64,000 nucleotides of DNA from Candidatus Freyarchaeum deiterrae (GCA_037305845.1 CP147778.1:3296001-3360000), one strand, 5' to 3'. Shown: positions 24,053-47,156, counted from the first letter of the stretch. The notes: generated by a model from the sequence alone, not told the origin. A program made the numbers and translations.

Positions 24053-27000
24053 ATGAAAAAGAGGGGAATACTAGTAATCATAATGATTCTTCTTCTAACA
24101 ATTTCGACACTTGTTGTACTTTCCGCATCAAACTCGAACTTTTCACCAATATTCCTAAACTCCCCCCAAAATAACATAGGAATAAGCACAAAATCATACA
24201 GCGGAAGCGGAACCCAGTTAAACGCAACACTCTACATAACAAACACTTACAATAATACACCGAATGCCACAAACACAATCTCCAATATATATGTTCCATC
24301 CCCTAGCGGTTGGGAAATCCTCAGGTCAAATCTGACTCTTTCTAATATTACTGCCCCAAATACAACCCTAGCATCGAATTACACCACTACTAACGCTACT
24401 TTGGATCTTAGCAATTTAACTGCGATGTCATTCCAACTGACAAACAATGCCTATCTGGACAATATCAGCGCTCAATTGAATGCAACTAATCCACCACCCA
24501 CTGCGAACTTTTATGTTTACAGTGCAGCCAATAACGGTGGGAAACCAATACCACTGCTTTTGATTGCATCCAACACTAGTGGTATTTCAATTCCAAGTGG
24601 AAATACTTGGGTTAATGCTAGCTTCGGACATCAATTTTTGAATATTTCGACAACATATAACAACACCTTTTTCATAGGCATTTGGCAGAGTTCGGGCCCT
24701 AAGGCTCCTCTGTGGAATGCTGTACAAGAATCTTCACCCCCTGGGAATGGATATGTTTACAATAATACTGGCTCAAGTTGGGTAGAAGTCCAAAATTATG
24801 ACTGTCAACTCGTAGTTAACGTTAGTGCAAGTAATAATACGCCAGCTGATAGTGCCTTCCCCTCAGAGATAGGATTAACCATTAACGGTTCACCGGTTCA
24901 GAATAGCAGTAAGGGTAACGGAGTATGGATTAATAGTACCGCAACTTCTGGCACAAATGGGTACGTTTTTTATGATGTGAATTCAACTTGGATGTCTACT
25001 GTGAGTTTCTCTTACATTTGGAATATTACTATGAGCAGGAATGCATCTGTTAGTGCACTCACTAATTTTTATGTTAGCCTTAATACTGGTGCTTCTTGGA
25101 ATATTACTGTGAATGCTGCTGGTAGTGACGGCTTCCCGCTGACCAATGGTGCTAATCACATAAACATCACAGGGACTCCCTCAGACTGGAATTTTACAAA
25201 TTCGATGGTTTATAACGTGTCTGGCAGCCAGTGGATTAATCTTGATTCTCGCCCACCTGATAATATCAGTTTCACTGCCGGTAATGGTACTTGGATTGTG
25301 AACTGCACAGCTCCTAACTATGTTTCCAGCATAGGCTTTTGGGTTGGTGGGGTTCCGGTTGCAAACGCGACCCTATACGACAACCTTAATATTACGGTGA
25401 ACTTTGCTGCCTTGGTTAACGGTTCCGCTAACCTAAGCATCTACGATTCATTTCAGATTCTGAATCATACGGAGGTAAAAACTGTAACTTCTTCTTCAAG
25501 CACTTGGTTTACTTGGAATGTTAGTAATAATGCCACTTCCACTGGACCATATAATGTAACCATCAGTTTTAAGGATGGATCGGTAGTCGGATACAATGAA
25601 ACATCTCTTTTGATTGTGCCTCTAACGAATACTTCTCTCGCCGTGACCAGTTATCCGCCCAACGTTGAGTACCCTGGCCCTGTTCCCATAACTCTTTACT
25701 ATAACAATACGGATAACAATAGCGGTGTAGCGGGGGCAACTATCACTGCCTATTTCACAAACTCAACATCCGCAACGATTCAGGGGCTTATCACTGATTA
25801 TGGAAACGGCACTTACAGTCTTAATTTAAATTTCAGTACAGACATTGGCATCCTTAGCGTGAAGTTCAATGCTAGCAATGTAAGACTCTTCAACTCGAGT
25901 GTTTCCAGTCCAATCCAGGTTAACTATACGCAGGCATTGGTTAGTATTCAGCAGTTGAGTACACCTTCAAGTGTTCCACTTGGTACCAGCTTGGTGGTTG
26001 AGGCTCAGCTATTGTATAATTCCAGCGGTCTTCCTGTTGCTGTTGGTGAGACTGTTTATTTCAATTTTTCAGTGAGATTTGGTGACAATTCAAGCACAAT
26101 TCTTCCAAGTAGTGGCCCAACTAATAGTACGGGTTGGGCAAAAGGTACTATTCAGGTGCCAAGTAATGCTGTTGAGCTAAATGTCACTGCTTATTACATC
26201 GGTAAAACTACCGTTTCTGGAGCAACAAGTTCTACGAACTCCGTTACTTTAACAAGTGCTCCGGTTAACCCCCCGGATACTGGTTTAGCTGCGTTGATGT
26301 TTCTTATTCTGACGCAGCAGAATCAGAACTCTCTGCTTTATCCTATTCTGGGGGTTGTAATCGGCTCTGTAGTAGCGGTTTTCGTGATAACTGATAGAGC
26401 GCGTAGGAAACACGAGGTTCCTCTAAAGGCTTTGGCTAGTCTTGAGAATATTATTGTGGATCACATTCTCAGCGGCGTCACAATTTGGGCTTTTGACTTC
26501 TTAAAGATGGAACAGGACGCAGTTCTGGTTTCTGGTTTCATGTCAGCGGTCAAGTCCTTCTTGGGAGAGATGAAGAAGGGCGGTCTGAGGAAATTGGAGA
26601 CAGAGTTTGGAACATTCATTAGAGAGGATGGAGAACTTCTGACCGTTACTTGTATCACAAGTGGTAGCACTCAAGAGGAAGAGAAATGGATCAGAGAAAA
26701 GCTGCACAGCTTCGTGGCAACTGCCGAGCAGCAAAACTGGGACAGACTCGTGAACTGGAGTGGCGAAGTTTCACACTTCAGATCGAAATTCTTGAAGACC
26801 CTGTCATCGTTGATCGATTTAGAGAAGGCGGAGCAGCTTCAGAGAGAGAAGGTTCTAAAAATACTTAAGGAAAGAGAGCGTCTTCAGGCGGAGCTCAATA
26901 ATCTGGGTTCAAAGCTGGAAACTCTTAACCAGCAACTCTCCGGAGGGATAATTGGCGAAGGGGAGTTTGAAGCTCGGAGGACCGAGATAGAACCGAAGTA

Positions 27001-27268: not shown

Positions 27269-27348
27269 TTAAGCCTTTTCTAACTTAATTTCTAATTTTT
27301 CTTCTTTTTTGAGAATGTATCTTCTTGTATTAAAGCTAGTAGTTATTT

Positions 27349-28779
27349 TCAGGTATTCATTATTTTCGGGCCGAATGGGCAGGAAACATCAGGTCCCAGC
27401 CAGTCTCCACCAGTTATGTACGCAGTGTATCTGCAACCGCCGCATATACTCTTGTATGTGCATTTTTTACAAGCACCTTTTAGCTCCTTTCGGTTTCTTA
27501 TGTAATTTAGTACTTCGTTGTGCATCCAGATCTCTTCCAAGCTCTGTTCAAGAAGGTTTCCCAATTTTATTGGGGCGGGGACACAGGGAAGCAGGTCTCC
27601 AGAAGCGGTGAGCCCCGCGTAGGTTAAGCCGGTCGAGCATCCACTAAAGCCTGCTGCAAGCTTTCTCACAATTTTGGAAACTTCAAGTCCAAATTTATCT
27701 TGAAACATTTTTTCGTGTCCTGATAAAGCTTCACTCACTGTGAGGATTTCACCATTTGAACGCTCGTGACATAGACGAGCATAGTAGGTCATTCCCCGAG
27801 CATAACACTGAATACCAAACCCGTTAACCACGCTTTCATGAAATTTTTTGTATATCGCTTCAAGTGCTCTTATCTTCTCCTTAGGCTTCACGTCAAGGTA
27901 CATTGCGTCGCATCCACGACCAGCAGGTATAAGCCGATTCAAATAGAATCTGGTCACACCAAGTTTCTCCGCCAAATCCATGGTCTCTTCCACCTCGTTA
28001 ACATTCTCACTGTACAGAGTCATGGTGGTGGCCAGCTCGTCAAAGCCCACAGAGGCGCAATTTCTTATTCCCTGAATCGTGGCTTCAAAGCTCCCGGGCC
28101 TGTTTCTCAGGAAATCATGAGTCGCAGGTCTCGCGCCGTCTAAACCTATTTCTACCCGTTTAATACCTGTCTCAGCCAGTCTTTTCGCTGTCTCAGGAGT
28201 CATCATGGTACCATTGGATGCTATTGTGCAAAGCATGCCGCAGTCGTATGCTCTTTTAATCACGTCGAAGATGTCCTTGCGTAGTAGCGGTTCTCCTCCA
28301 GAAAAGGTGAGTATAGCTACTCCTGCGTCGCTCATGTTGTCTACAACCTTGAAGGCTTGAGAAGTAGTTAATTCAGGATGTGAGGAAGCTGGTGAGGAGT
28401 CTTGATGGCAGTGAAGGCAGTTGAGGTTGCATCTATTAGTGAAATTCCAAACAATAGTTATTGGGGCACCGCAGGGCTGTGGATCCCTTAATCCAAAATT
28501 CGCAACACCCTTCACCACGCTGAGCATACACTTACGGATTAGCGAATCTTCCAGCAACCGTTTCACGGTGTTACTATCAATTCCCAGACGGAAGAATATT
28601 AGGCGAATTAGGGGCCTTAGAGCCGTTGATGTTAACAAGCAACTTTCACAGACTGAGTGCCCATTTTTTGAATATTCGTCAAAGACTGAAAGTAATCGTT
28701 CCTGCCCACATTTCTCACAATTACCTGTCAAATAGTGTGAAAGAGCTTTCCAAACAGGGTTAAAAACACTATATTTCAT
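27349..28779 (-). CDS. Radical SAM/SPASM domain protein (NirJ/AhbC/PqqE-like)
   Basis: WNFTNRCNLNCLHC, FSGGEP, and SPASM cysteines GC.TG...PC...CKKC....ICGGC...C; additional N-terminal CxxC pairs. Confidence 0.92.
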   Translation of the reverse strand: MKYSVFNPVWKALSHYLTGNCEKCGQERLLSVFDEYSKNGHSVCESCLLTSTALRPLIRLIFFRLGIDSNTVKRLLEDSLIRKCMLSVVKGVANFGLRDPQPCGAPITIVWNFTNRCNLNCLHCHQDSSPASSHPELTTSQAFKVVDNMSDAGVAILTFSGGEPLLRKDIFDVIKRAYDCGMLCTIASNGTMMTPETAKRLAETGIKRVEIGLDGARPATHDFLRNRPGSFEATIQGIRNCASVGFDELATTMTLYSENVNEVEETMDLAEKLGVTRFYLNRLIPAGRGCDAMYLDVKPKEKIRALEAIYKKFHESVVNGFGIQCYARGMTYYARLCHERSNGEILTVSEALSGHEKMFQDKFGLEVSKIVRKLAAGFSGCSTGLTYAGLTASGDLLPCVPAPIKLGNLLEQSLEEIWMHNEVLNYIRNRKELKGACKKCTYKSICGGCRYTAYITGGDWLGPDVSCPFGPKIMNT

Positions 28780-29032: not shown

Positions 29033-29980
29033 TTATGTGCTTAAGTCGAGAGATAGGGTTTGTAAACATTTTGCTTCTACTAGATCCGATATCGCATTTT
29101 TGAGGATTCCCAACATTTTTTCTCTATTTTTCGGGTCGGTGGCAACTAATCCATATGCTTTTATTCCTATTTGTTTCTCGATTGCCTCTGGAGGGACTGC
29201 GTCTGGTAAATCCTGCTTGTTCGCTACTAATATGACGATTACATCTGGTTTCTCAGTTTTAACCATTTGTAATATTCCTTTAGTTTCCGTTAGGCTTTCA
29301 GCTTTTGAGTCGGTAACAAGTATTGCCACGTCGGCTCCCTCAAGAAAGGGTTGCCAGAGTTTCCTGTAACGAGGCTGGCCCGAAAAGTCCCAAAAAACAA
29401 GTCTCGTGTCCTTGGGTTCAAAATCGAACTCTTTGACATCCACTCCGACCGTTGGAACATAGGCGAAATTCGGTTCTTCTCCTATAATGAGTTTTAGGAG
29501 TGAAGTTTTTCCAACTCCCCCCCGACCGAGGATCGCCATTTTAAAGAAGGGAAACAAAATCTCATCCACCGTCTGTCCAAATTGCTCAAAAATATTTTCT
29601 ACGACTTTTTCCTCTGTCTCTTTATCTGTCTCCTTCTGTTCCACCGCATTCTCTACTTTCTCCACTTTTGAAGCCTTCTTAAGGAGTTTGAATTCTTTCT
29701 GTAATTTTATGAGTTTGTTTGAGACGTACATTTCGTCTTCGTTTTTGTCTGTACACAATAAGAAGATTACATCCTCAAAGAGGGAGTAAGCATATTTCAG
29801 GTTTTCAATACTTATACATTCGATTCTTTCGGTCTGGTCAATGTTTTGTATAAAGGCTGCTAACTCTTTAATAAAATGGGATACGAGTTCATGGTCAAGT
29901 TTAAGTTCTCCGTAAAACTTTTTGAAGAGCTCCGTTCCAGACTTTTCGAGAATGAATACTCCATATATCACTTTCCTCAC
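29033..29980 (-). CDS. Longin-domain / Arf-like small GTPase fusion, copy 1 (true start may be the GTG 9 nt downstream)
   Basis: N-terminal VIYGVFILEKSG..LF.KFY (adaptin-sigma/SRX-like longin); G1 GRGGVGKTS, G2 PTVG, G3 WDFSGQ, G4 ANKQDLPDA. Confidence 0.88.
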   Translation of the reverse strand: MRKVIYGVFILEKSGTELFKKFYGELKLDHELVSHFIKELAAFIQNIDQTERIECISIENLKYAYSLFEDVIFLLCTDKNEDEMYVSNKLIKLQKEFKLLKKASKVEKVENAVEQKETDKETEEKVVENIFEQFGQTVDEILFPFFKMAILGRGGVGKTSLLKLIIGEEPNFAYVPTVGVDVKEFDFEPKDTRLVFWDFSGQPRYRKLWQPFLEGADVAILVTDSKAESLTETKGILQMVKTEKPDVIVILVANKQDLPDAVPPEAIEKQIGIKAYGLVATDPKNREKMLGILKNAISDLVEAKCLQTLSLDLST

Positions 29981-30066
29981 TTCCGAAAATTTTTAACATT
30001 TATTTGTAAGAGTTCCCTCTTTAGGGGCGGGGTAGTTGACCTGTTAGTGGCAATATAATTTATGTA

Positions 30067-31005
30067 TTAATGTTGGGCGGTTGTTGTTTTAGTTCTAGAT
30101 TCTATTATTTTGTTTATCGTTTCTTTGAGGATTTTCATCATTTTTTCAATGTAGTTTAGGTCGGTTGCAACTAATCCGTGCGCCTTTAGTCCTAAGTATT
30201 TTCCAACTTTTTCCGGAGGAATAGCGTCTGGTAAATCTTGCTTGTTCGCAATTAGTATGATGTTTACCTTCGGTTCTTCTTTCTTAATCAGTTGGTATAT
30301 TCTTTTGGTTTCCTCCAAGTTTTCCACAGTCGAATCGGTGACCAGCACGACAATGTCGGCTCCTTCGAGTAGGGGCTTCCAGAGTTTCCTGTAACGTTGC
30401 TGACCGGAAAAGTCCCAAAAAACAAGTCTCATGTTCTTTGATTCAAAGCCGAACTCTTTAACGTCCACTCCAACTGTTGGGATGTATGTGGGATCCTGCT
30501 CTTCGCCCATGATGAGTTTTCGGATAGTAGTTTTTCCAACCCCTCCCTGTCCCAGGATCACTATTTTAAGGTAGGGGAACAAAATCGCATCCATCTTATC
30601 CTCAAATCCTACTGAAGAATCCTCAGCCGGTATCACTGCATCTGGGTTGATTCCTTCTTTTTCCATGGCAGCCCTGACTGCAGCTGATCTCGGCATGCCC
30701 TTGTGAAGTTTAAGAAATTCCACTTGAACTTTTACTATTTTGTCAGTGAGATATATTTCGTCTTCCTTTTGATCCGAGCATATTACAGAAATCATATCCT
30801 CAAATATAGAGTAAACAAATTTCAGCTTTTCAAGATTCAGAGTACCGATTCTTTCGGTCTGGTCCATGTCTTGTACAAATGATGTTAATTCTGTTACAAA
30901 ACGGAATAAGCGATCTTGGTCAAAGTTGATATTTCCATAAAATTTTTGGTAAAAGTTTCTTCCAAACCTGTCGAATGTGAATACTCCATATATCACTTTT
31001 CTCAC
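30067..31005 (-). CDS. Longin-domain / Arf-like small GTPase fusion, copy 2
   Basis: Same architecture; GQGGVGKTT, YIPTVG, WDFSGQ, ANKQDL. Confidence 0.88.
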   Translation of the reverse strand: MRKVIYGVFTFDRFGRNFYQKFYGNINFDQDRLFRFVTELTSFVQDMDQTERIGTLNLEKLKFVYSIFEDMISVICSDQKEDEIYLTDKIVKVQVEFLKLHKGMPRSAAVRAAMEKEGINPDAVIPAEDSSVGFEDKMDAILFPYLKIVILGQGGVGKTTIRKLIMGEEQDPTYIPTVGVDVKEFGFESKNMRLVFWDFSGQQRYRKLWKPLLEGADIVVLVTDSTVENLEETKRIYQLIKKEEPKVNIILIANKQDLPDAIPPEKVGKYLGLKAHGLVATDLNYIEKMMKILKETINKIIESRTKTTTAQH

Positions 31006-31044
31006 CTTCGAAAACTTTTAACATTTATTTATGAGCCCCCCTCT

Positions 31045-32034
31045 TTAGGGGTGAGTAGGTAACTTGTAGTCGGCAATTAATTCTTTTAGGTTCTGCTTTT
31101 TTGGAGCTTTGACTTTTTGGGATTTTGCTTCTGTTATGTCTTGTATCGTTTTTTTGAGAAGTTCTAGTATTTTTTTTCTGTTTTTTGGGTCGGTGGCGAC
31201 AAATCCGTGTGCTTTCATTCCCAAGTAATTTTCTATTGTCTCTGGAGGAGTTGCGTCCGGCAAATCCTGCTTGTTAGCTACTAATAAGATTTTTATGTCT
31301 GGTTTCTCCGCCTTAATCAGGTCTAATATCCCTTTAGTTTCCGCTAGGTTTTGAATTTTTGAGTCGGTGACTAGTATTGCTATGTCGGCTCCTTCAAGGA
31401 AGGGTTGCCAGAGTTTCCTGTAACGTTGCTGACCGGAAAAGTCCCAAAATACAAGCTTCATTTTCTTGGGTTCAAAATCGAATTCTTTAACGTCCACTCC
31501 AACCGTGGGACTATAAGTTGAATCCTGGTCTTCGCCCATAACTAGTTTTAGTAGCGAAGTTTTTCCAACTCCCCCCTGGCCGAGAATAGCCATTTTAAAG
31601 AAGGGGAATAAAATCTCATCCACGATAAGTTCAAATCTCCCGTAAGAATTCTCTCCGACTCTCTGCGCGATATCTTCATCTTCATCCTCCTGTTCTGTTT
31701 CATCCTCAGCCTTCCCTGCTTTCAATACGTTATCAATGGGTATGAATTCTTTCTGCAATTTTATGAGTTTGTTCGCTATGTACATTTCGTCATCGCTTTT
31801 ATCTATGCATAGCGCGAAGAGCTTAACATCATGAATGGAGTAGACAATTTTCAGGTCTTCAAAACTTAGAGTTTCAATTCTTTCACTGTGGTCAATTTTT
31901 TGTATATAGGCTGCAAAATCTCTCAGCAAACGGAGCGTTAGCTCGTTATCAAATTTAAGATCTTTGTAAAACTTCTGGAAGAGCACTTTTCCAGACCAAT
32001 CGAATATGAATAGTCCATATATCACTTTTCTCAC
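31045..32034 (-). CDS. Longin-domain / Arf-like small GTPase fusion, copy 3
   Basis: Same architecture; GQGGVGKTS, YSPTVG, WDFSGQ, ANKQDL; acidic linker EDETEQEDEDED. Confidence 0.88.
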   Translation of the reverse strand: MRKVIYGLFIFDWSGKVLFQKFYKDLKFDNELTLRLLRDFAAYIQKIDHSERIETLSFEDLKIVYSIHDVKLFALCIDKSDDEMYIANKLIKLQKEFIPIDNVLKAGKAEDETEQEDEDEDIAQRVGENSYGRFELIVDEILFPFFKMAILGQGGVGKTSLLKLVMGEDQDSTYSPTVGVDVKEFDFEPKKMKLVFWDFSGQQRYRKLWQPFLEGADIAILVTDSKIQNLAETKGILDLIKAEKPDIKILLVANKQDLPDATPPETIENYLGMKAHGFVATDPKNRKKILELLKKTIQDITEAKSQKVKAPKKQNLKELIADYKLPTHP

Positions 32035-32263: not shown

Positions 32264-33172
32264 TCACTGAACATCCATGATGGATATAGCGTCCTCTTCT
32301 TTTCTGATTATTTTCATGATTTCAAGTTCTTTTAGAAGGGTATTTAATTTCTTTAAGGGTATGCATAGGTCTTCGCTAAGTTTAGAAACATCGGATTTCC
32401 TTACTCGCTTCAAGAAGAACATTATCCTGTATTTCGGATCTCTTTCCAGAATTGGTGTAATTCTCCTCATGAATTCCCTAAAGCTTTGCATTTGGTCTAG
32501 AATCTGACTCTCTTCTTCGTAATCAGGAGTGGGGGTATATACGAAAGGAGAGTCTCTTTGTTTCTCTGAGAGGCTTAATGAATTTTGCAGCTTTTCTATG
32601 TCTTTCTTTTGATCCAGAATTTTTCTATCCCTAGCCTTTACAGCCAGCATTAATTCGTCTATTCTTTTTTGATATTCTTTAACAACTTTTGCATTGATGT
32701 TCTCATCTTTCTCTGTTTCAATTTTGGTATCGGGAGCAGCCCCTGGGATTTTTAAATCGTTCCCAGGGGGCTCAACTTTTCTACTTCCTTTAGTCTTCGT
32801 CTGAGAGGGAATCATGTCATTAAAATCAAAATTTTGGGCATGACCAGTGACCGAGGAATGCGCTTTCCTTGACCTACTATGCATCGGTGATGACTGTTCA
32901 AGCTCAGAACCAAAAATACTCAATATGTTGTCTATACTTTCCTGTAAAGCATTATCGAATGCTTGTCTAACAACCATATCCAGACCCTTAATAGGAAATC
33001 TTAGCGTTATCCCTCGCACCAATTCGTCCCTAATTTTAACCATGCACCCAATTAACTCTGTCTCAATTGTATCTGAGGATTCTACTTGGGAAACCGCCTC
33101 ACTGCTGCTAGTGACATATGTATACCTTTTTTTCGCACTTTGACTAACTTCAATTTGGGACTCCGTTATCAT
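32264..33172 (-). CDS. Hypothetical protein with disordered linker, coiled coil and C-terminal winged-helix-like domain
   Basis: Heptad stretch YQKRIDELMLAVKARDRKILDQKKDIEKLQ; C-terminal DPKYRI.FFL......VSKLSEDL.IP.KKL..LLKELE..KII wHTH pattern. Confidence 0.7.
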   Translation of the reverse strand: MITESQIEVSQSAKKRYTYVTSSSEAVSQVESSDTIETELIGCMVKIRDELVRGITLRFPIKGLDMVVRQAFDNALQESIDNILSIFGSELEQSSPMHSRSRKAHSSVTGHAQNFDFNDMIPSQTKTKGSRKVEPPGNDLKIPGAAPDTKIETEKDENINAKVVKEYQKRIDELMLAVKARDRKILDQKKDIEKLQNSLSLSEKQRDSPFVYTPTPDYEEESQILDQMQSFREFMRRITPILERDPKYRIMFFLKRVRKSDVSKLSEDLCIPLKKLNTLLKELEIMKIIRKEEDAISIMDVQ

Positions 33173-33512
33173 TAGCGATCCTCTCTTCTAATTACACTTA
33201 ATAGAATCCATTAGTGGGTCTTACAACCAATTCTTTTGTTCAATTCTTATTTACTAATATATACATGGCACTTCTGAAAAGCTTAGTAAACTTTTTAAAA
33301 ATTGGACCTACGGAGAAAAGCGCACGCCTTTTTAACAAAAACCAGAAAGTTTATCCACGCAACTAGTAATAATTTGACACCTTAACTACGCGTTTAGCCA
33401 ACTTAACATTAAATGAATAAAATCAGCGAGGTAATGGATGGGCTTATAAATTTTTTTAAAAAAGGTACCAGTTATGAAACTTGAAGTCGGTCTGTTCATA
33501 AAAAGATATGAA

Positions 33513-34631
33513 CTAAGTACTACTAGGTTGCGAAGATGCGTTTAATTGTGTCATGGATGGTTGGAGGATTTCTTTGATTTTATTTGTAGTTTTGTTAATC
33601 ACGTCTATGGCGTATCCCAGTTGAACTTCAGTTTCTATAGGTAGAACGATTAGTAATGAGTGGTCTTCTGTGATATTCACCAGCATTTCGTTCTTTTCTT
33701 CGCCTCTTATGATAACTAGGTTTAACACTTTTTCTCCCAGGTCTTTGAGAACCTTGCTTGAGTTTAGGATTATGAAACCCATCATGGACTGCGTTATGTC
33801 GTCTTTTTCCAGTGTTGAAGCAACTGGTAGTCCGCTGGATTTGTCTATAAGCATGCTTCCCGGAGCTCCAACTTCTTTGTTAAGGTTCGTAAGGATTTTT
33901 CTGATAAGTTGATCGCTGGAACTTTTCTGGGTGTCTGGTTTACGAGTTGTTTTTGAATGTTTCTGTATGAATTTTGAATAGAGTTGCAAGGTCTCCTGAA
34001 ATGCCTCATCAGCTTTCATCCAGTGGTTACCACTCTCCCCTTCCCTCGATTGGGTCTCTTCTATAGAAGTTCCTAAGCAGACTGTTCTTTTTGCAATTTT
34101 TTCAATCTTTTTAAACGAGCTGGGATCAGAGTCAGTTTTTTTGGAGCTAATTTCTGGGGGTGGTAATAGTAGGAGCTCCGCCACTTCTTCGAATGGGAGG
34201 GCTTCGGGTAAATCCTGTTTGTGAGCAAAAATAACTGAGAAAGCATTTGGGGAGTATTTGGCTAATTTGGTTATTGCTCGCCAGAATTCTTTGCGGGCAA
34301 AAGCAAACAATTGTTCCTTATCAGAATCTACAACAAATACGAAGATGCTAACTTTACTAAAGATGTTCTTTTCATTCTCCGGTTGGTGGTAATCTTCAAA
34401 AAACCTTTCCTGCCCACCAAAGTCGTAGAATTGACAAATGTATTTGCTTTTCCTTTTATCCGGATGCACATCTACAAACTCTGTGGGCTGCAGATTTCTT
34501 AGCTGGTCTGCACCAAATCCGTAAATCGTCTGCCTGAGAATCGCGGTTTTTCCAGCGTCCTGAGGTCCCATCAATAAAACCTTTATTCTCTCATTGTGGC
34601 CTTCTAATTCTGTAAAATTTTGTTTCGTCAT
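33513..34631 (-). CDS. Rag/Gtr-like GTPase with C-terminal roadblock domain
   Basis: KVLLMGPQDAGKT, L.PT, YDFGGQERFFEDY...NIFSKVSIFVFVVD, and G4 as HKQD (a Rag-type His). C-terminal ~120 aa L..LNKEVGAPGSMLID..GLPVAS roadblock pattern. Confidence 0.82.
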   Translation of the reverse strand: MTKQNFTELEGHNERIKVLLMGPQDAGKTAILRQTIYGFGADQLRNLQPTEFVDVHPDKRKSKYICQFYDFGGQERFFEDYHQPENEKNIFSKVSIFVFVVDSDKEQLFAFARKEFWRAITKLAKYSPNAFSVIFAHKQDLPEALPFEEVAELLLLPPPEISSKKTDSDPSSFKKIEKIAKRTVCLGTSIEETQSREGESGNHWMKADEAFQETLQLYSKFIQKHSKTTRKPDTQKSSSDQLIRKILTNLNKEVGAPGSMLIDKSSGLPVASTLEKDDITQSMMGFIILNSSKVLKDLGEKVLNLVIIRGEEKNEMLVNITEDHSLLIVLPIETEVQLGYAIDVINKTTNKIKEILQPSMTQLNASSQPSST

Positions 34632-37853: not shown

Positions 37854-38002
37854 AAGAAAAAAACAATTTAAAAATAGAATTATAACTTTGAAAAGTTAAG
37901 ATAAGGAAGAGATATATACCAAAGTTAATCATTTTTATTACAGAAACTTGAAAAATTCTAAAAAAAGGATAAAAAATATTATAAATAGTGAGGGATGCGA
38001 AA

Positions 38003-38794
38003 ATGAGTTTAGTTGAAACTATACCATCCGGTATTCCCGGCCTAGATGAACTGCTGAACGGCGGGTTACCAAAAGGTAGAGCAATCTTAGTCTCAGGCGG
38101 ACCAGGAACTGGAAAAAGTATTCTATCTGCACAATTCATATACAACGGTGCCAAAGAATACGGTATCCCCGGAATCATAGTGAGCTTGGAAGAACCCGCA
38201 ACAACAATAAAAGAAAACCTAAGCGCCTTCGGATGGGACTTGGACAAACTCGTAGATGAGAATCTGCTGGTGATAATAGATGCAGCACCTATTCAGAGAA
38301 GCACGGATGCCGGAGATCGCGTTTATGAGATTTCCGGTGAGAGCCATCCGATTCTGGGTGAAAGGTCTTTCAATATTGAGAACCTCGTGTCAGTTATACA
38401 TGAGAAGAGAAGAGAGCTAAACGCAACAAGAATAATAGTGGACTCCATAACGAACCTTACACTTCAGCACAAGGACCTCTTCCAGCTCAGACAAGATGTC
38501 CTCACTCTTGTGCGTTCACTTAAAGCAACTGGAGTAACCTCACTCCTTACGGCTGAAAGCCTAAACGTGCACGAGATGGGGCGCTACGGTCTGGAACCCT
38601 TCATAGCGGAAGGAGTAATCCTGCTCTACATGCTGAGGCAGGGAAATACAAAAATAAGAGCACTGGAAATCATGAAAATGCGAGGAATAAATCACAGCAT
38701 GGACGCAGCCTTCTTCAGAATAACAAATAAAGGCGTAGTTCTGTACCCCGAGGAACGTGTTTTCAAAGAAGATTCGCGAGGAATCATCTGGTAA
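38003..38794 (+). CDS. KaiC-like single-domain ATPase (RAD55 family)
   Basis: SGIPGLDELL.GGLP.G, GGPGTGKS, SLEE, IIVDS, LEIMKMRG..H and F.IT..G motifs (alternative start GTG 37988). Confidence 0.93.
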   Translation: MSLVETIPSGIPGLDELLNGGLPKGRAILVSGGPGTGKSILSAQFIYNGAKEYGIPGIIVSLEEPATTIKENLSAFGWDLDKLVDENLLVIIDAAPIQRSTDAGDRVYEISGESHPILGERSFNIENLVSVIHEKRRELNATRIIVDSITNLTLQHKDLFQLRQDVLTLVRSLKATGVTSLLTAESLNVHEMGRYGLEPFIAEGVILLYMLRQGNTKIRALEIMKMRGINHSMDAAFFRITNKGVVLYPEERVFKEDSRGIIW

Positions 38795-39118
38795 CTAAAC
38801 AATCGAAAAAAATAAAATAGGTCTACCCACTCAATAAAGTGAACAGAAAAATTATCCAATTATGCAAAAGATATCTGAGACAAAAAAAGTTTTTAAGACT
38901 ATACAAAAACTCATCTTTTCGGAATGAAATTTCAGCAGCATGATTAACCGCGTAGTTAATACATTTTAATTCTGCTATTTGCGTAGAAATTAACAATTGC
39001 ATCAAGACAAAAATTATGCGCCCTATACTCTCCAATATTATTTATTATTTAACTAAAATTTTTACTGGTCAACGATTATTACATAGACTTTGGTGGAAAA
39101 AGAAAGGTGTGACGTACT

Positions 39119-39646
39119 ATGTCTAAAATGAAAGATTTCGACTATTCGGTAAAGGTTCTAATTGTAGGGGACGGTGGAGTCGGTAAAACGAGCCTGACAC
39201 GCAGATTCGCAACCGGGCAGTTCACACAAGAATATATTCAAACCATAGGTGTGAACCTTTTCACCAAAATCATCGAAGTGAAGGGTCAGAAAATGAAGAT
39301 GCACCTCTGGGATACAGGCGGTCAAGAGAAGTTTAGAAATTTATTACCAAAATATTATGAAGGGGGTAGCTGCGGACTTGTGGTTTACGATGTGACAAAA
39401 CCCCTAACTCTCAAAAAGTGTGGTTGGTGGGTAAGCGAGATAACCAAGAATCGTGGTAAAATTCCCCTGATACTAATAGGTAACAAAACCGATCTTGATA
39501 GACAGATCTCTACAGAGGAAGGCCAAGCTATTGCAGACAAACTAGGCATACCTCTTATCGAAACCTCTGCTAAAGACCAAATCAACGTTGAAAATGCCTT
39601 CTCCCTCCTGGGAGAAATGATTTTAGAAAACGCAGAGAAGCAATAG
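39119..39646 (+). CDS. Rab-like small GTPase
   Basis: DY.VKVLIVGDGGVGKTSL, TIGV, WDTGGQEKFR, YY.G, GNKTDL and ETSAK motifs; no C-terminal Cys. Confidence 0.93.
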   Translation: MSKMKDFDYSVKVLIVGDGGVGKTSLTRRFATGQFTQEYIQTIGVNLFTKIIEVKGQKMKMHLWDTGGQEKFRNLLPKYYEGGSCGLVVYDVTKPLTLKKCGWWVSEITKNRGKIPLILIGNKTDLDRQISTEEGQAIADKLGIPLIETSAKDQINVENAFSLLGEMILENAEKQ

Positions 39647-39828: not shown

Positions 39829-40632
39829 TTAAACCTTCTCTTTTGCTCTTTTGCTCCCTTTCGGAGTTAATTGGCAACTCGAATCTTGAACGCTTTTTAC
39901 CATGCTGTTAAGGAAAGGAGTTGAGAAAACTATTTCTGGTCTTGCACCGTTACGTTTTGCTATAGAGTATTGCTTTTCTTCAGCGTAAGGTATTCCCGAA
40001 GCATGCTTCACTATCTGTATGTAGTTTTGTCTTCTATGTTCCCTAAACTCGGTTCTTGTTTTGATCACGGTGTTTGCCAGTGCCTGTATTCTTTTCTCTA
40101 CGCTGTTTTCGGTAACTCCTTGAGATAACATGTAGTATTCTATTGTTTTACACCTCATTGCTTCCTTAATGTTTTTATTAAAGAACTGAATCACCTCATT
40201 TGTTTCAAAGTTTATGAAGAGGGAGCTAAGAGAGTAGAGACAAACTAAAGGGCCCGGAGCATTCTCGTCCGATTTTTGGAACTGTTTGTCTCTCGCCGTC
40301 TTCATGGTAAGAAATATATCAAAGACCTTTGAGCAATTTTCGAGGTAGTATTCGGTTTCATAAACGTTTTTTGGCGAAATACTGTCTATAACCGTAAAAT
40401 TCTCAGAGTGAATAATATCCTCGATCATTTTTGCAAATTGAAGGGAGTCAGGCGATGTTATTACAAGAATGACACTCCCTCCTTGATTGTAGTGGTTTCG
40501 AATTATTTCTGAGAGAATAAAATCATTGCCCGACCCAATATCATCTATAAAAAGAACAACGTCACCTCTACCTATCCCACTATCAAGCATTTGGTCTAAA
40601 TCTTTTAATCCAGTAAACTCATTCGCACCCAT
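39829..40632 (-). CDS. Inactivated KaiC/RAD55-like ATPase-fold protein
   Basis: TGLKDLDQML..GI.RG lead-in; Walker A replaced by DDIGSGND; Walker B region reads LYSLSSL. Confidence 0.7.
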   Translation of the reverse strand: MGANEFTGLKDLDQMLDSGIGRGDVVLFIDDIGSGNDFILSEIIRNHYNQGGSVILVITSPDSLQFAKMIEDIIHSENFTVIDSISPKNVYETEYYLENCSKVFDIFLTMKTARDKQFQKSDENAPGPLVCLYSLSSLFINFETNEVIQFFNKNIKEAMRCKTIEYYMLSQGVTENSVEKRIQALANTVIKTRTEFREHRRQNYIQIVKHASGIPYAEEKQYSIAKRNGARPEIVFSTPFLNSMVKSVQDSSCQLTPKGSKRAKEKV

Positions 40633-41430
40633 TTAATATAACCTTCATTGTAGGTTATTTCCCACTTGCATTGATTAGCATTAATGAGGATAGGTATATT
40701 TTGAAGGGGTTTGGTCTCTAAATCCCCAAAAATAATAAGCTTATTATTTTGAAATTCGAATACTCTCAAGTTATTTGAGTAGAATTATCACATTTATAGA
40801 TGTATATTAAATATTATATATACATTTTGGGTCTTTTGCAACTTTAGTTCCCATTAATGGTGATTATCTGAACTTAACTTGAACATTATGTAAAAAGAAG
40901 GTCTTCTTTTTAAGAAGATTATGTGAATTTAAGCATTAGTCTGCGATTTTATGCGAAGAGTATTCAAAAATGCTATTTGGTAACTAACAAAATTTTTTGG
41001 GATTGCAGAGATGCTTGGAAAAATGTATGTTTTACCGATTTTTCAAGAACATTTGTTCACTATCTTATTTTATATTTTATTTATTGTTCAATTTATGTGC
41101 ATGCTTGTATGAAACAAAACAGCTTTTAAAATTTTGAACTAGTCTAAATATTTGGCTCTAAATTCTCAAACAAACCAAAACAGAATTATTTTCCTCGTAT
41201 TATCTGGTTTTTTTGGAAAATCTTTATAAATGATATTCCAAAATTTTCAAATTTTTGAAGTGCTTTTGGGGTCTATGTTTTTGCGTAGTTTATGGCTCTG
41301 TGTAGGGTATATTTGCGTGGTATTTTGTTCTTATTTTTCTTGGAAAAGGGTTTTGTAAGATTAGTATAGGTAGTTTTTCTTCGCATTTTTTGGCTTTTTC
41401 GTAGTGTCGGTTACATTATATGGTGATAGT

Positions 41431-42840
41431 ATGCCCAAGGGAATCGTTGTTATTAAGTGGGACGATAGAGTTGGTCCTGTGATTCTGGCCAAGCATCCTG
41501 AGAAAATTGGATTTGACATGGATCTAGCTATGAAGGTGTACACTACTCACTTTGCTGGTTCCACTCCACCCTTCTCGGTTTTAGATATTGGAGACTGGCA
41601 CATTGCGAGTTATTATCTTCCAAAAGACAAGTATCTCTTCGCTCTGGTTCTTGATCCCGAAGAACGCGGAGACAAGTATGAGGATAAGCTTTTCGCAGTT
41701 GCAGGTAAGTCCAAGAAACTTATGAAGAAAAAGAGAGGCATTATCGACGATTTACCCAAGCTATACGCCGAGTTGAAGACTGCAGGAGTCACCTTTAAGA
41801 GAAGTGAACTGTACGAAAAACCAGAGATTAAGAAGCTCTTGGAAAAGTTTATGGATAACACTTTGTCTGAGCTTGAACCTACTTTTAACTGGGATGAAGG
41901 ATTTAGATACACTAATGTAGAGAAAATTACAGGTCTCGACCCCATTGACACCAAAGTTTTGCTTGAAACTCTTAGCAGATATAAACTCCTTAACCGGAAA
42001 GCTTTCGATTCCGCTTTAGCCTGCCCTAATTGTGGTTCCTTTAGGATTCGGGTTCGTTACCGTTGCCCTTACTGCTCCTCGTTTAGTATTCAAAAGAGCA
42101 ACTTTATTGAGTGTTTCCTCTGCGGCACAGTCGACACTGAGGAGTTTTTTTCAGGAGTCTACTACGGCGAGCCTGACAAGTACTTCTGTCCAAAATGTGA
42201 GAAAGAGCTTAAGGGCCTGAGTTTGGATTACCGAAAAATACAGGCACAGAACAGGTGCGAAAACTGCAAAAAAATATTCACAGAAGTTAATGTCGCGGTT
42301 CAGTGCACCGAATGCAACCACACCGTTAAACTTGCTTTCACTAAAATAGTTGAAGCACCATTTTACACTCTAAACACGGAATACACTAAAGAAATCAAGA
42401 GACAAATATCAAGCATACAATTAAGACAGATGATCTCCAGCCTCTACAAGAAGAAGGGTTGGAAAGTGGAAGCACCAGGAACAATTGTGGGCAGCGACAA
42501 TGTTACCTACGATTTTCAAGTCGTAGCCGAAATGCCTGACACTCTGGGCAAGGAATTAATTAAAAACATTCTCCCAGGAGGAAAAATCGCGATTGACATT
42601 GTTGAGGACACAGAGGAAGTCAAAAAGGAAAAGATCATGGAATTCGTAGGAAAAAATACGAGCATAGTCCCAGTCCAGTACCTAATAGTAGCTATACCCA
42701 AACTATCAGAAGAGGCGAAACAACTCCTGAAAAAACAGGAAATAATGTTCTGCGAAAAGGAAAGGGCACAAAACGAGGTACCAGCACTAGTTGAAAACAT
42801 AGCATGTATAGATGTTTCAGAACTCGTGCCAGAGAAATAA
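41431..42840 (+). CDS. uDENN/longin-like domain + TackOD1-like six-knuckle Zn domain + C-terminal restriction-endonuclease-fold domain
   Basis: MPKGIVVIKWDDRVGPVILAKHP; GFRY..; CPNC, CPYC, CFLC, CPKC, CENC, CTEC; GWKVEAPG.IVG.D.V.Y.F...KIAIDI. GGTGA RBS before ATG 41431. Confidence 0.78.
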   Translation: MPKGIVVIKWDDRVGPVILAKHPEKIGFDMDLAMKVYTTHFAGSTPPFSVLDIGDWHIASYYLPKDKYLFALVLDPEERGDKYEDKLFAVAGKSKKLMKKKRGIIDDLPKLYAELKTAGVTFKRSELYEKPEIKKLLEKFMDNTLSELEPTFNWDEGFRYTNVEKITGLDPIDTKVLLETLSRYKLLNRKAFDSALACPNCGSFRIRVRYRCPYCSSFSIQKSNFIECFLCGTVDTEEFFSGVYYGEPDKYFCPKCEKELKGLSLDYRKIQAQNRCENCKKIFTEVNVAVQCTECNHTVKLAFTKIVEAPFYTLNTEYTKEIKRQISSIQLRQMISSLYKKKGWKVEAPGTIVGSDNVTYDFQVVAEMPDTLGKELIKNILPGGKIAIDIVEDTEEVKKEKIMEFVGKNTSIVPVQYLIVAIPKLSEEAKQLLKKQEIMFCEKERAQNEVPALVENIACIDVSELVPEK

Positions 42841-43243: not shown

Positions 43244-44224
43244 ATGAAAAAAAGAGGATTCTTAGAGGTCTTGACAATACTACTGCTAACCCCCACATTA
43301 CTTGCGATGACACAACAAGATAAGGGCTTTACGCTTTATCTTTTGCTGGGAGTGGCGATTTGTTCCGTGGTTGTGGCTATAATAGCCGCTAATAGGTTGC
43401 GTATAAAACATGTGATTCCAACTAAAGTTTTGGCTAGTCTTGAAAACATCATTATAGACCATACTCTCAGCGGCGTCACTCTATGGGCGTTTGACTTTCT
43501 AAGAATGAATCAGGACGTAGGACTTCTTTCCGGATTCATGTCCGCCGTGAGATCATTTCTGGACGAGATGAAAGAGGGTGGCCTAAGAAAACTGGAAACT
43601 GAGTCTAGAATGCTTATCAGAGAGAATGGTGATTTTCTGACAGCAACCTGTATCGCCCGTATCAAGACTCCTCAGGAAGAGGAATGGATTAGACAAAGGC
43701 TGCGTAAATTTTTGTTAAACGCTGAACAACAACACCGAAAAAGGCTGGAAAATTGGATGGGCTGTGTCAGGCCTTTCAAAGCCTCATTTATGAGGATCCT
43801 GGCTTCAGTGATTAATCTCGATAAGGCTGAGAAGCTTCAAACGGAGAGGCTTTCCAAGATCCGGAGAGACAAAGAGAGACTCCAAGAGGAGCTTAGAACC
43901 CTGAATTTCCAGCTGGAGAAGCTAAACCAGCAGTTAGGCGTTGAAGAAATAAATGAAAAGGAGTTTGAAGCTAGGAAAAACGAAATAGAACTGAACTATG
44001 AAGACATTCAGAATAATTACGATGAAACTAGTCTCCTCCTATCAAGGGTGCCCTCCACACCAAGGAAAAAACTAATTACAACAGTAGTCACGAGGGAGAC
44101 TAGAAATTATGCAAATCAGACTCCTCTAAACCAAAATGAAAAAAGAAAAATTACAAGTGAAAGAGCGTGGAGGCACCACAAAAACCGGAAACAAAAAAAT
44201 ATTAAAAGTATTTATAACATATAG
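43244..44224 (+). CDS. Ectodomain-less paralogue of the longin-tailed receptor-like proteins
   Basis: MKKRG leader joined directly to MTQQDKGFTLYLLLG TM. The cytoplasmic domain is highly similar to 44274..47156 (LASLENIIIDHT.SGVT.W.FDF..M.QDVGLLSGFMSAV.SFLDEMKEGGLRKLETE). Confidence 0.82.
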   Translation: MKKRGFLEVLTILLLTPTLLAMTQQDKGFTLYLLLGVAICSVVVAIIAANRLRIKHVIPTKVLASLENIIIDHTLSGVTLWAFDFLRMNQDVGLLSGFMSAVRSFLDEMKEGGLRKLETESRMLIRENGDFLTATCIARIKTPQEEEWIRQRLRKFLLNAEQQHRKRLENWMGCVRPFKASFMRILASVINLDKAEKLQTERLSKIRRDKERLQEELRTLNFQLEKLNQQLGVEEINEKEFEARKNEIELNYEDIQNNYDETSLLLSRVPSTPRKKLITTVVTRETRNYANQTPLNQNEKRKITSERAWRHHKNRKQKNIKSIYNI

Positions 44225-44273
44225 TTATACAGGAAAGCATTAAAAATTATCGTGAAATGCGAGACGACCAACA

Positions 44274-47156
44274 ATGAAGAAAAGGGGAATCCTAACAATA
44301 GCAGTGGTCTTTTTTCTAATAATCCTAGCAGTCGGGATGCTTTCAACGTCAAATCCTCCAGCAATATTTCAAAACTATCCCCAAAATAATCCGAAAGCAA
44401 CCATAAAATCATACATCGGAAGCGGCGACCAGTTAAACGCTCTGCTCTACATAGTGAACAACTACAACAGCACTGCGAATGCTACAAGCACAACCTCTAA
44501 CATATACCTTCCCTGCCCTGCCGGTTGGAAAATCGTCTGGACGAACCTGACCCTATCAAACATTTTTGCTCCCAACAGTACCATTGTACCCAACAATGAT
44601 GTTGATAACGCTAGTTTTACACTCGCCACAGGTTCCCCTTACGCGATGTCATTTCAATTAACAAATAACGCATGGCTGGATAACATTAGTGTTCTGCTGA
44701 ACACCGCAAGTTCAAGTGCTAAAGCAAACTTTTACGTTTACAATGCGACAAACAATAGTGGAATACCTCAACCATATTATCGAATTGCTAGCATATTAGG
44801 AGTTTCACTCACAGTTGGAACTATCTGGAAAAATGTTACTTTTCCGCATATATTTTTGGATACTTCAAAAACGTTTGGTAACACCTTCTTTATCGGTGTT
44901 GAACGAAGCAACTCTTATGCTCAGTACTGGAGAGCTGTTAACTATACGACATCACCTTTTCTGGGCTACGGATACGTGTATCAAAACATCTACGGAGTTT
45001 GGGCGTATTTATCGCATTATGATTGCAAACTCAAAGTTAATGTGAGTGCAAGCACAACACCAAACCCTGAGAGTGCCCTGCCCTCAGAAATAGGCTTAAC
45101 CATTAATGGTTCACTAGTTTCAGACATAAGTAAGGGCAGTGGAGTATGGATTAATAGTACAGCAGCTTATGGAATAAATGACTACGTCTTCCAAGATGCG
45201 AATTCAACTTGGATGTCCACCGTACGTTTCTCTTACGTTTGGAACGTCACCTACAACAGAGAAACCAATGCTAGTACTAATTTTGTCGTTAATACTGGTA
45301 GTAACGCTTTTTGGAATATTACAGTTAATGCAACTGGCAATGACGCTTTCCCGTTGACTGCCCATGGCATTAATCACATAAATATCACAGGGATTCCCAT
45401 CTTTTGGGGAGATGAGAGTTCTATGGCGTATAATATGACAGGCGGCAGTTGGATTCCGCTGGATTCTTATCCCCCTGATACTATTAGTTTTCCCGCCGGT
45501 AACGGAACCTGGATCGTGAACTGCACATCTCCTAACCATCAACCTGATATAGACTTCAATGTTGGTGGGGCGCAGGTTGAAAACGCAACCCTTGATGATG
45601 TTCTTAACATTACCGTAAACTTTTACACTCCTGTTGGGGGTACTGCTAATCTTAGTGTATATGACCCTTCTCAAATTCTGAATTATTCAGCTGAAAACAT
45701 TTTAAACTTGGGTACAAGTACTTGGTTTACTTGGAATGTTAGCAATAGTGCTGCATCCACTGGAACGTATAACGTAACCATCCGGTTCAAGTACGGATTA
45801 ATTGTCGGGTATAATGAAACAACTCTCAATATTGTGCCTTTTATAAACGCTACCATCGGTATCAACAGTTTTTCACCAGATATTGAGTATCCTAATAACG
45901 CTTCTGTAATTCTCTACTATAATGACGGAACAGGACAGGGAATAATAGGAGCATTAATTACCGCTCATGATGACACCAAACAATTAAACATTAGTTGGGA
46001 TGATAACAGTGATGGCACCTACAACGTTACAATATACTTCGGTACAGACTTCGGTACCCACCAAGTTTATCTCACCACCAGTAAACGACTTTATGAATCA
46101 AGCACTTCTGACCCAATCTCAATCAATTACGTACCTTCAAACCCAGAACCAATAAACCCTCTATACGCTGCTCTAATTGGATTAATGTCCAATACCATGA
46201 CGGAACAGAATCAAAGCATTACTCTTTATCTCTTAATCGGAACCATTGCGGGATCTGTGATTACGGCGGCAGTGGGAACTGATAGGCTGCGTAGGAAACG
46301 CGAGGTACCAATAAAGGCTTTAGCAAGCCTCGAAAGTATTATTATAGACCACACAATCAGCGGCGTCACAATGTGGGTGTTTGACTTTATAAAAATGGAT
46401 CAGGACGTAGGTCTTCTCTCAGGATTTATGTCCGCGGTCAAATCATTCTTGGATGAAATGAAAGAGGGCGGACTAAGAAAGCTGGAAACGGAATTTAGAA
46501 CCTTCATCAGAGAGAACGGCGAGTTTCTAACAATTACCTGCATCGCTAGCATTGACACTCTACAAGAAGAGGAATGGATTAGACAAAGACTACGCAAATT
46601 TTTACAAGACGCAGAGCAACAGCACCGGGATACGCTCGAAAACTGGATGGGCAATCTCAAACCTTTCAAAACCTCATTCATGGAGATACTGGCTTCAGTA
46701 ATCGATCTCGATAAGGCGGAGAAACTCAAGATGGAAAGAATCACCAAGATACAGAGAGATAGAGAGAGCCTCCAAGCGGAGCTAAACAATTTGAATTCTC
46801 AGATGAAGAATCTAAACAAGCAGTCAAAAGCAGGAGAAATCAGCAAAGAAGAATTTGAAGTCAAAAAAACCGAAATAGAGCTGGAGCACCAAAGTGTTCA
46901 GAGACAATACGAAGAGGTCGACCTCCTTCTATCAAGATTGCCGACCACCCCCGAACAGAAAAAGGCTACAATAGCACCCAATAAGAAGATCGCAAAACAA
47001 ACAGGACAGGCTCCTCTAAATAATAATGGAAACATGGGAATTACAAAAGAAAGAGCTGGAAAACTCGATAAACAACAGAAACAAAAAACGCGTAGAAAAA
47101 TTTCGAAAATAACTAATGATTCTTCTCGGAAAAAACCGAAGAAACTACAAAAATAA
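44274..47156 (+). CDS. Receptor-like membrane protein with cytoplasmic longin-like domain and coiled coil (paralogue of 24053..27268)
   Basis: Shared blocks AMSFQLTNNA.LDNIS, PSEIGLTING, NSTWMSTV.FSY.WN, NHINITG and AGNGTWIVNCT; TM; longin-like domain; GEISKEEFE SHOCT-like motif. Confidence 0.82.
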   Translation: MKKRGILTIAVVFFLIILAVGMLSTSNPPAIFQNYPQNNPKATIKSYIGSGDQLNALLYIVNNYNSTANATSTTSNIYLPCPAGWKIVWTNLTLSNIFAPNSTIVPNNDVDNASFTLATGSPYAMSFQLTNNAWLDNISVLLNTASSSAKANFYVYNATNNSGIPQPYYRIASILGVSLTVGTIWKNVTFPHIFLDTSKTFGNTFFIGVERSNSYAQYWRAVNYTTSPFLGYGYVYQNIYGVWAYLSHYDCKLKVNVSASTTPNPESALPSEIGLTINGSLVSDISKGSGVWINSTAAYGINDYVFQDANSTWMSTVRFSYVWNVTYNRETNASTNFVVNTGSNAFWNITVNATGNDAFPLTAHGINHINITGIPIFWGDESSMAYNMTGGSWIPLDSYPPDTISFPAGNGTWIVNCTSPNHQPDIDFNVGGAQVENATLDDVLNITVNFYTPVGGTANLSVYDPSQILNYSAENILNLGTSTWFTWNVSNSAASTGTYNVTIRFKYGLIVGYNETTLNIVPFINATIGINSFSPDIEYPNNASVILYYNDGTGQGIIGALITAHDDTKQLNISWDDNSDGTYNVTIYFGTDFGTHQVYLTTSKRLYESSTSDPISINYVPSNPEPINPLYAALIGLMSNTMTEQNQSITLYLLIGTIAGSVITAAVGTDRLRRKREVPIKALASLESIIIDHTISGVTMWVFDFIKMDQDVGLLSGFMSAVKSFLDEMKEGGLRKLETEFRTFIRENGEFLTITCIASIDTLQEEEWIRQRLRKFLQDAEQQHRDTLENWMGNLKPFKTSFMEILASVIDLDKAEKLKMERITKIQRDRESLQAELNNLNSQMKNLNKQSKAGEISKEEFEVKKTEIELEHQSVQRQYEEVDLLLSRLPTTPEQKKATIAPNKKIAKQTGQAPLNNNGNMGITKERAGKLDKQQKQKTRRKISKITNDSSRKKPKKLQK

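Follow-up and report, generated by a model that had tools for sequence, protein, structure and literature searches.

Gene content of the locus

The window analysed here is a stretch of 64,000 nucleotides (C1:3296001-3360000) from the complete, single-contig genome (3,576,204 bp) of Candidatus Freyarchaeum deiterrae, a curated Freyarchaeia genome originating from California wetland soil (PMC11291895). Positions 24053-47156 contain 15 genes, all of them intact ORFs (Table 1), which encode 3 receptor-like paralogues, 5 small GTPases (3 longin-fused, 1 Rag-roadblock and 1 Rab-like), 3 KaiC-fold proteins, 2 TackOD1 proteins, 1 radical SAM/SPASM enzyme and 1 coiled-coil/winged-helix (wHTH) protein. 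The GTPase, KaiC/GvpD, TackOD1, Lrp and radical SAM domains were confirmed by Pfam, and the gene types counted in an earlier note on this DNA were thereby borne out; none of the 15 proteins matched a DENN domain in Pfam.

Table 1. Genes and promoter elements of the cluster, in window positions
Feature	Position	Strand	Size or score	Remarks	Class
R1, receptor-like	24053..27268	+	1071 aa	one of 8 genome paralogues	peripheral
Radical SAM/SPASM enzyme	27349..28779	-	476 aa		peripheral
Three tandem longin-GTPase fusions	29033..32034	-	315, 312, 329 aa		core
Coiled-coil/winged-helix protein	32264..33172	-	302 aa		core
Element before coiled-coil gene	33354..33392	-	36.0 bits
Rag-like GTPase with C-terminal roadblock	33513..34631	-	372 aa		peripheral
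TackOD1-Lrp/AsnC transcription factor	34866..35969	-	367 aa		core
Element between divergent TackOD1-Lrp and GvpD-like genes	36260..36298	+	24.0 bits	second box degenerate
GvpD-like double KaiC-fold protein	36399..37853	+	484 aa		core
Single-domain KaiC-like ATPase	37988..38794	+	263 aa	probable start 38003	core
Element before Rab	38949..38987	+	34.0 bits
Rab-like GTPase	39119..39646	+	175 aa		core
Inactive KaiC-fold protein (dead KaiC)	39829..40632	-	267 aa	Walker A and B lost	core
Element before longin-TackOD1	41282..41321	+	40.3 bits	genome's best site
Longin-TackOD1-nuclease-fold protein	41404..42840	+	469 aa	probable start 41431	core
R2	43244..44224	+	326 aa	signal peptide and TM helix adjacent	peripheral
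R3, receptor-like paralogue	44274..47156	+	960 aa		peripheral

Thirteen genes for longin, GTPase, roadblock, KaiC or TackOD1 proteins lie in 16 consecutive ORFs, a count that includes one 113-aa ORF not taken as a gene. The best other region of the genome holds 5 such genes and the maximum in 5000 permutations was 8; with local paralogues collapsed, the figure was 9 of 11 against a permutation maximum of 6. Although these families are common genome-wide (about 42 longin-like, 34 GTPase, 34 KaiC-like and 18 roadblock-like genes, as counted with profiles built from the window proteins), the density of the cluster far exceeds chance, and the possibility raised earlier, that abundant families alone give such clusters, is not borne out. 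A horizontally acquired island was considered and rejected, since the GC content (35-44% per 2 kb) resembles the 40.7% of the genome.

Domain architecture of the proteins

The three longin-GTPases share 51-62% identity with one another, are present in 2-3 copies in relatives, and have an Arf/Rag-related G domain. The earlier note had counted five small GTPases of three types; the number and the Rab- and Rag-like assignments stand, but the three 'Arfs' do not. The Arf family (AArf) is characterized by a Leu-Asp pair in G1 (positions 2-3), a Gly as third residue of G3 and an N-terminal amphipathic helix (PMC11914678), whereas these proteins have GRGG or GQGG at G1, DFSG at G3 and a longin domain in place of the helix, and their assignment to the Arf family was therefore rejected. 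The Rab-like GTPase has complete G1-G5 motifs, with Ras/Rab as best profile (PF00071, E 4e-52), and, unlike eukaryotic Rab, does not have the C-terminal prenylation cysteines, which are likewise absent from other Asgard Rabs (PMC10933270). In the Rag-like GTPase, the G domain is of Gtr1/RagA type (PF04670, E 3e-20), and the roadblock (Pfam E 0.079, under the cut-off) groups by profile with 19 roadblock-like proteins of the genome.

The genome contains two TackOD1 genes, both in this cluster. Their TackOD1 domains (PF18551; 130 and 111 bits against a cut-off of 32; E 8e-38 and 5e-32) each have six Cys/His knuckles, as the common six-knuckle Zn domain noted earlier would have it, with the single HxxC knuckle that the family has beside five CxxC replaced by CxxC in longin-TackOD1. 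TackOD1-Lrp contains an AsnC-type HTH (PF13404, E 2e-11) and a ligand-binding domain (PF22482, E 4e-9). The model of longin-TackOD1 (pLDDT 94.5) has three parts. Its NPRL2-like longin domain is nearest to the GATOR1 chain 8fw5_B (Z 12.5, rmsd 2.6, 122 residues aligned) and has a Gly-Pro motif (G15-P16) at the beta1-beta2 turn, a motif that marks GAP-type longins (PMC12290439). A conserved arginine finger was not found in the beta4-beta5 loop, a position taken from the secondary structure of the model and not from a residue-level alignment to NPRL2: the residue is Lys here and Arg in some relatives in Freyarchaeia and family f28, and is absent in Hermodarchaeia and family f7. Searches with the longin profiles gave no match among solved-structure sequences or in Pfam. 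The TackOD1 domain of the model matches winged helices of the ArsR type (Z 8.6-9.5), the alignment spanning a long Zn-knuckle insert; as modelled, TackOD1 is a winged helix whose wing is interrupted by the Zn ribbons, a feature absent from the published description. The last domain has a restriction-endonuclease-like fold that resembles the nuclease-like AF1548 (Z 10.7); its catalytic motif is degenerate. Proteins combining TackOD1 with the nuclease-like fold form a large family, with 2794 clusters (50% identity) matching the profile versus the 12 proteins first described.

The Walker and Glu-Glu motifs agree with the reading of the three KaiC-fold proteins as active, half-active and dead. Walker A, Walker B and the catalytic Glu-Glu are intact in the KaiC-like ATPase (PF06745, E 5e-69), which is about 90% identical throughout the genus; the GvpD-like protein (PF07088, 54 bits against a cut-off of 24, with relatives also matching PF20440) has Walker A/B without the catalytic Glu-Glu in its first domain and a degenerate second domain. 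A circadian KaiC clock was rejected, since the ATPase has a single domain instead of two active ones and no Ser-Thr at the place of the autophosphorylation site, and no KaiB was found among the 15 genes.

R1 consists of a signal peptide, an Asn-rich beta/Ig-like ectodomain, a TM helix (761-779), a longin-like domain and a coiled coil. The R2 gene region shares 72% DNA identity with its neighbour R3; R2 is a recent duplicate of R3 without the ectodomain, so that three receptor-like paralogues are indeed present but one has its signal peptide and TM helix side by side. Five more receptor paralogues are found elsewhere in the genome. The earlier proposal of seven longin-fold proteins and one roadblock holds in part: structure supports longin-TackOD1 alone, the longin part of the GTPase fusions is weak by Pfam, the roadblock falls below the cut-off as given above, and the receptor tails are linked to the five-strand, three-helix longin fold only transitively, by a profile match to the GTPase-fused longins (E 4e-8); their model is of low confidence, and an Atlas score of 0.83 is a lead only. 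Outside the cluster, the window contains another gene for a large secreted/surface protein (12761-15601, 946 aa), unmatched by the receptor profiles, and a PadR and HAAS/zinc-ribbon membrane protein gene pair (19844-20989) that adjoins a receptor paralogue in the genomes G007 and G010.

Conservation in Freyarchaeum

On the contigs available, ten core genes (those of the longin-GTPases, the coiled-coil protein, TackOD1-Lrp, the GvpD-like protein, KaiC, the Rab-like GTPase, dead KaiC and longin-TackOD1) remain clustered in Freyarchaeum species. Several other assemblies carry the core on one contig each; three gene orders occur among them, and one assembly has that of the window nearly complete. 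Four same-genus drafts have one block of longin-GTPase, TackOD1-Lrp, coiled-coil, longin-GTPase and GvpD-like genes and another of KaiC, longin, Rab, dead KaiC and longin-TackOD1 genes. On longer contigs, in GCA_038825615.1 and GCA_030587405.2, these blocks are joined in one reshuffled cluster with extra GvpD-like, longin and small genes. Between TackOD1-Lrp and longin-TackOD1, JGI 3300005098/99 and GCA_052745115.1 agree with the window in gene order, apart from insertions or a single loss. In the close sister species JGI 3300031877 the cluster is almost complete and ordered as in the window, with R1 and R2 absent and the Rag-roadblock gene beyond R3. Thus, the linkage asked about in the earlier note is kept within the genus for the core, while gene order is reshuffled and the periphery varies. 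The coiled-coil/wHTH gene, earlier set aside as an unassigned outsider, instead belongs to this core, and it probably heads a transcription unit with the longin-GTPases.

The peripheral genes are distributed differently. Two close sister species have no R2; R3 comes after longin-TackOD1 in two close species and not in four more distant ones; and in G007-G010 the receptors are about 14 kb away or unlinked. The Rag-roadblock gene is at the opposite edge of the cluster in the sister species and elsewhere in the genome in G006, and no orthologue was found in G007-G010. Within the genus, the radical SAM gene usually adjoins a receptor paralogue, even without the core. In G006 (99% complete by markers, but a 540-contig draft) neither the promoter element described below nor an orthologue of the coiled-coil, TackOD1-Lrp, KaiC, Rab, dead-KaiC or longin-TackOD1 gene was found, whereas a receptor, the radical SAM gene and a Rag orthologue are retained. 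Since G006 keeps the periphery without these core genes, core and periphery appear to be separate, and the receptors, radical SAM enzyme and Rag-roadblock look like interchangeable neighbours that come and go.

Two other gene groups of this genome (G000) were noted. A conserved operon at C1 3369266-3372784 (also in loci L046 and L047) encodes a membrane protein, a Rag-roadblock paralogue and a longin protein of the same family as the N-terminus of longin-TackOD1; it is better conserved in the genus than the Rag of the window. A cassette of KaiC, receiver, PAS kinase and a small gene lies at C1 3256323-3261694, outside the window and about 60 kb upstream; in JGI 3300031877 it is inside the cluster, between the longin-GTPases and the radical SAM gene.

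A two-box promoter element

Two boxes were first seen in aligned DNA upstream of longin-TackOD1, after the TATA box. The element consists of two copies of GCGYRG, always 31 or 32 bp apart, with the first about 60 bp after TATA; the boxes lie about 30 and 60 bp downstream of the expected transcription start. Since the motif was first spotted by eye, it was tested with a matrix trained on relatives only, this genome excluded. In a scan of the 3.58 Mb, the top four sites were the four cluster promoters (Table 1), for three of which, but not for the GvpD site, the training set held orthologous promoters; the next site (19.5 bits) is in coding DNA. The pattern GCGYRG at 30-33 bp has four intergenic matches genome-wide, three of them in the cluster (Rab, longin-TackOD1 and coiled-coil). 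The promoters of the receptor, Rag, radical SAM, KaiC and dead-KaiC genes scored below zero on the matrix and have no element. Likewise without it are the OsmC and glycyl-radical (PFL-like) genes at window positions 48014-51112, which follow the cluster in most relatives.

A box was found before longin-TackOD1 at 11 of 11 loci tested, a few of which overlap, and in relatives the element also precedes one longin-GTPase and a longin gene heading a longin-Rab unit; in three relatives this longin gene stands between the Rab-side element and Rab, and it is missing here. All Freyarchaeia sites are in sense orientation. The element had no match in Rfam, a GTDB-wide scan for its palindromic form gave mostly unrelated bacterial matches, and a sigma-70 promoter/terminator scan, the wrong promoter type for an archaeon, remained at chance level.

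Full-length TackOD1-Lrp was found only in Freyarchaeaceae and Hermodarchaeia among the 301 genomes searched, and the relatives-only matrix detected the element upstream of TackOD1-Lrp in Hermodarchaeia as well. In one Hermodarchaeia genus, 10 of 10 genes whose upstream DNA could be inspected have it; it is more complete there and includes an inverted repeat, and the recognition helix is SDATIR, as in Freyarchaeum. In a second genus, with the helix GDATVR, it is absent in 4 of 4, a correlation of helix and element that rests on three lineages. In two lineages, candidate sites lie 200-500 bp upstream of TackOD1-Lrp. The strict pattern matched in 12 of the 25 genomes of these two groups versus 8 of 276 others, the latter near the reversed-pattern control; it had no match in G006. 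A strict version with A/T flanks proved too narrow. Hermodarchaeia genus g21 (L157, L158, L161, L166) has a different conserved inverted repeat (GCTAATC...GATTAGC) upstream of a TackOD1-Lrp with a differing recognition helix, possibly an operator change. At the Hermodarchaeia loci examined, the element was not found before the TackOD1-Rab or KaiC cassettes, and the wide regulon may therefore be specific to Freyarchaeia. Archaeal Lrp-family factors typically autoregulate via regularly spaced sites (PMC4046817), and TackOD1-Lrp is the probable binder of the two-box element.

Recurrence in other Asgard archaea

Of 301 Asgard genomes, 96 have a TackOD1 match that passes the Pfam cut-off. In 5 of the 8 other families examined (f3, which we take to be Odinarchaeia, f6, Hermodarchaeia, Atabeyarchaeia and f28), a TackOD1 gene and a Rab-like gene are immediate neighbours, and in 3 of the 8 a TackOD1 gene is within three genes of a KaiC; the TackOD1 genes of f7, presumably Thorarchaeia, and f18 have neither a GTPase nor a KaiC neighbour. 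In f7 (L064-L067, L094-L102), longin-TackOD1 has a conserved context of two longin fusions and a MinD/ParA-like gene, with no GTPases. A first tree grouped these Rabs and KaiCs with those of the window, but the groups dissolved with more sequences; deep one-to-one orthology did not hold, and a recurring association is claimed here, not shared descent.

Loci picked as best matches to the window KaiC are repeatedly flanked by GvpD-like, dead-KaiC, Rab-like, receiver and PAS-kinase genes, which were not seen beside the housekeeping KaiC paralogue. The PAS-histidine kinase/receiver genes beside such cassettes were overlooked in the first reading of this locus. The window also has a stand-alone receiver gene (51580-51960), 4.4 kb beyond the cluster, which is the best genomic match to the receivers of the Hermodarchaeia KaiC cassettes; in a close species (L126 14705-15487) a kinase ATPase fragment, lost here, stands before the receiver gene. 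In Atabeyarchaeia-1, a gene that converges on a KaiC gene (L115 2538-6518) encodes a 1326-aa fusion of a signal peptide, Ig repeats, a TM helix, a longin and a KaiC fold, and at Odinarchaeia loci a TM-longin protein is found three genes from TackOD1.

Proposed circuit and alternatives

Taken together, the locus probably represents a co-regulated signalling core with accreted neighbours. TackOD1-Lrp oligomers would bind the boxes and repress, from downstream of the transcription start, the coiled-coil/longin-GTPase, GvpD-KaiC, Rab and longin-TackOD1 units. Less firmly, KaiC, the GvpD-like protein and dead KaiC may together make up a nucleotide-state hub that receives signals from cytoplasmic PAS kinase/receiver systems, whose genes are likelier input than the receptors; haloarchaeal GvpD acts on the regulator GvpE, and the KaiC trio is by analogy taken as an integrator of kinase and receiver signals. 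We tentatively suggest that the Rab-like GTPase is controlled or read by longin-TackOD1, a pairing for or against which the complex prediction (Rab with GTP and Mg plus longin-TackOD1, score 0.00) does not weigh. Through the common TackOD1 domain, the regulator would be coupled to the states of the hub and of the GTPase, and the circuit would feed back on its own components. That the whole is an Asgard-specific feedback circuit is a possible but somewhat doubtful reading; in it, the Rab-like GTPase, the NPRL2-like longin and the KaiC/GvpD hub would act via the common TackOD1 on an Lrp-type factor, which would repress their genes through a defined operator.

The earlier note had suggested one surface-to-transcription pathway; in such a pathway, the longin tails of the receptors would recruit GTPases that act through KaiC on TackOD1-Lrp. 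The position of R3 after longin-TackOD1 in two close species, the Atabeyarchaeia-1 fusion of Ig, TM, longin and KaiC parts adjoining a KaiC gene, and the TM-longin protein near TackOD1 in Odinarchaeia speak for such a link. However, the sister cluster has neither R1 nor R2, the receptors of G007-G010 are distant or unlinked, the Rag gene changes place or is not found, G006 keeps a receptor and the radical SAM gene where the core was not found, the receptor, Rag and radical SAM promoters are without the element, and five receptor paralogues lie elsewhere; the single pathway is not supported and is improbable. We also regard as unlikely, to the same degree, a signalling island without joint function, in which two or three small modules (TackOD1-Rab, KaiC-GvpD-dead KaiC and longin-GTPase repeats) were gathered by local duplication and the element is a relic of promoter duplication. 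Gene order and copy number do vary, tandem paralogy inflates the gene count, the coiled-coil and GvpD promoters are alike beyond the boxes, and islands formed through preferential attachment have been described (PMC6393860). Against a relic, between species with about 70% protein identity the boxes are kept while the DNA separating them has changed, the genes behind them are unrelated to one another, neither six of the core genes nor the element was found in G006, and the element recurs at the regulator gene in Hermodarchaeia.

Least probable is a co-regulated core in which the element works at the RNA level, as a leader motif or through alternative hairpins, or serves as a binding site for the coiled-coil/wHTH protein or longin-TackOD1. 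The sites are in predicted 5' leaders and always sense, although a duplicated promoter cassette would look alike; the Hermodarchaeia form has an inverted repeat, and TackOD1 is itself modelled as a winged helix. The inverted arm is degenerate in Freyarchaeia, however, the Hermodarchaeia variants are not compensatory, Rfam gave no match, and 31-32 bp corresponds to three DNA helical turns; as for the coiled-coil protein, G064, the only Hermodarchaeia genome searched for it, has the element and no coiled-coil homologue.

Relation to known systems

Longin-GTPase fusions, a roadblock-Rab-DENN operon and NPRL2-like fusions are already known in Asgard archaea (10.1101/2020.10.19.343400, PMC10933270). 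The cluster resembles that operon in pairing a Rab-like GTPase with a longin-type regulator, and the NPRL2-like fusions in joining a longin to a prokaryotic signalling output domain (10.1101/2020.10.19.343400); it differs from the operon in that there is no DENN, the longin is fused to TackOD1, and KaiC, a transcription factor and a promoter element are added. The archaeal KaiC-like ATPase hubs of Makarova, Galperin and Koonin (2017), as summarised in PMC5847659 and PMC4858521, similarly combine active, GvpD-like and inactive KaiC folds with receiver/kinase genes and a transcription regulator; compared with these hubs and with haloarchaeal GvpD-GvpE, the partners here are Rab-like and longin-fused GTPases, and there are no KaiB, pilus or gas-vesicle genes. 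With GATOR1, folliculin, C9orf72-SMCR8 and Asgard GP-motif longins, longin-TackOD1 shares the longin fold and the Gly-Pro at the beta1-beta2 turn (PMC12290439), but unlike the GATOR1-type GAP longins it has no conserved arginine finger, known partner subunit or sequence-level match, and it carries a C-terminal Zn-ribbon winged helix and nuclease-like fold. TackOD1-Lrp is similar to Ss-LrpB and BarR in its AsnC HTH, ligand-binding domain and candidate regularly spaced sites near its own gene and local targets (PMC4046817, PMC4977709), and differs in its N-terminal TackOD1, in predicted targets that are GTPase/KaiC signalling genes rather than metabolic ones, and in candidate Freyarchaeia sites that are direct repeats of a half-site. 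The six Cys/His knuckles are those of TackOD1 in TACK archaea (PF18551; PMC5847659), where the domain occurs with receiver domains, whereas here it is fused to Lrp and to longin. A literature search, in which few subscription papers were covered, yielded none on a KaiC-GTPase-TackOD1 cluster or an Asgard GTPase regulon, as the earlier note had supposed for the combined locus.

Tran et al. reported that Asgard gene layout rarely pairs GTPases with longin/roadblock partners and suggested control by transcription factors (PMC10933270). Asgard genomes carry dozens of small GTPases and longin/roadblock proteins in search of partners and control; for these, the locus offers, in a curated genome, a candidate factor together with four sites as its targets and a handful of co-regulated partners. 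If the proposal is true, eukaryotic-signature genes would here form a predicted regulon, and longin-GTPase nutrient signalling would have a forerunner in prokaryotes with a transcriptional output.
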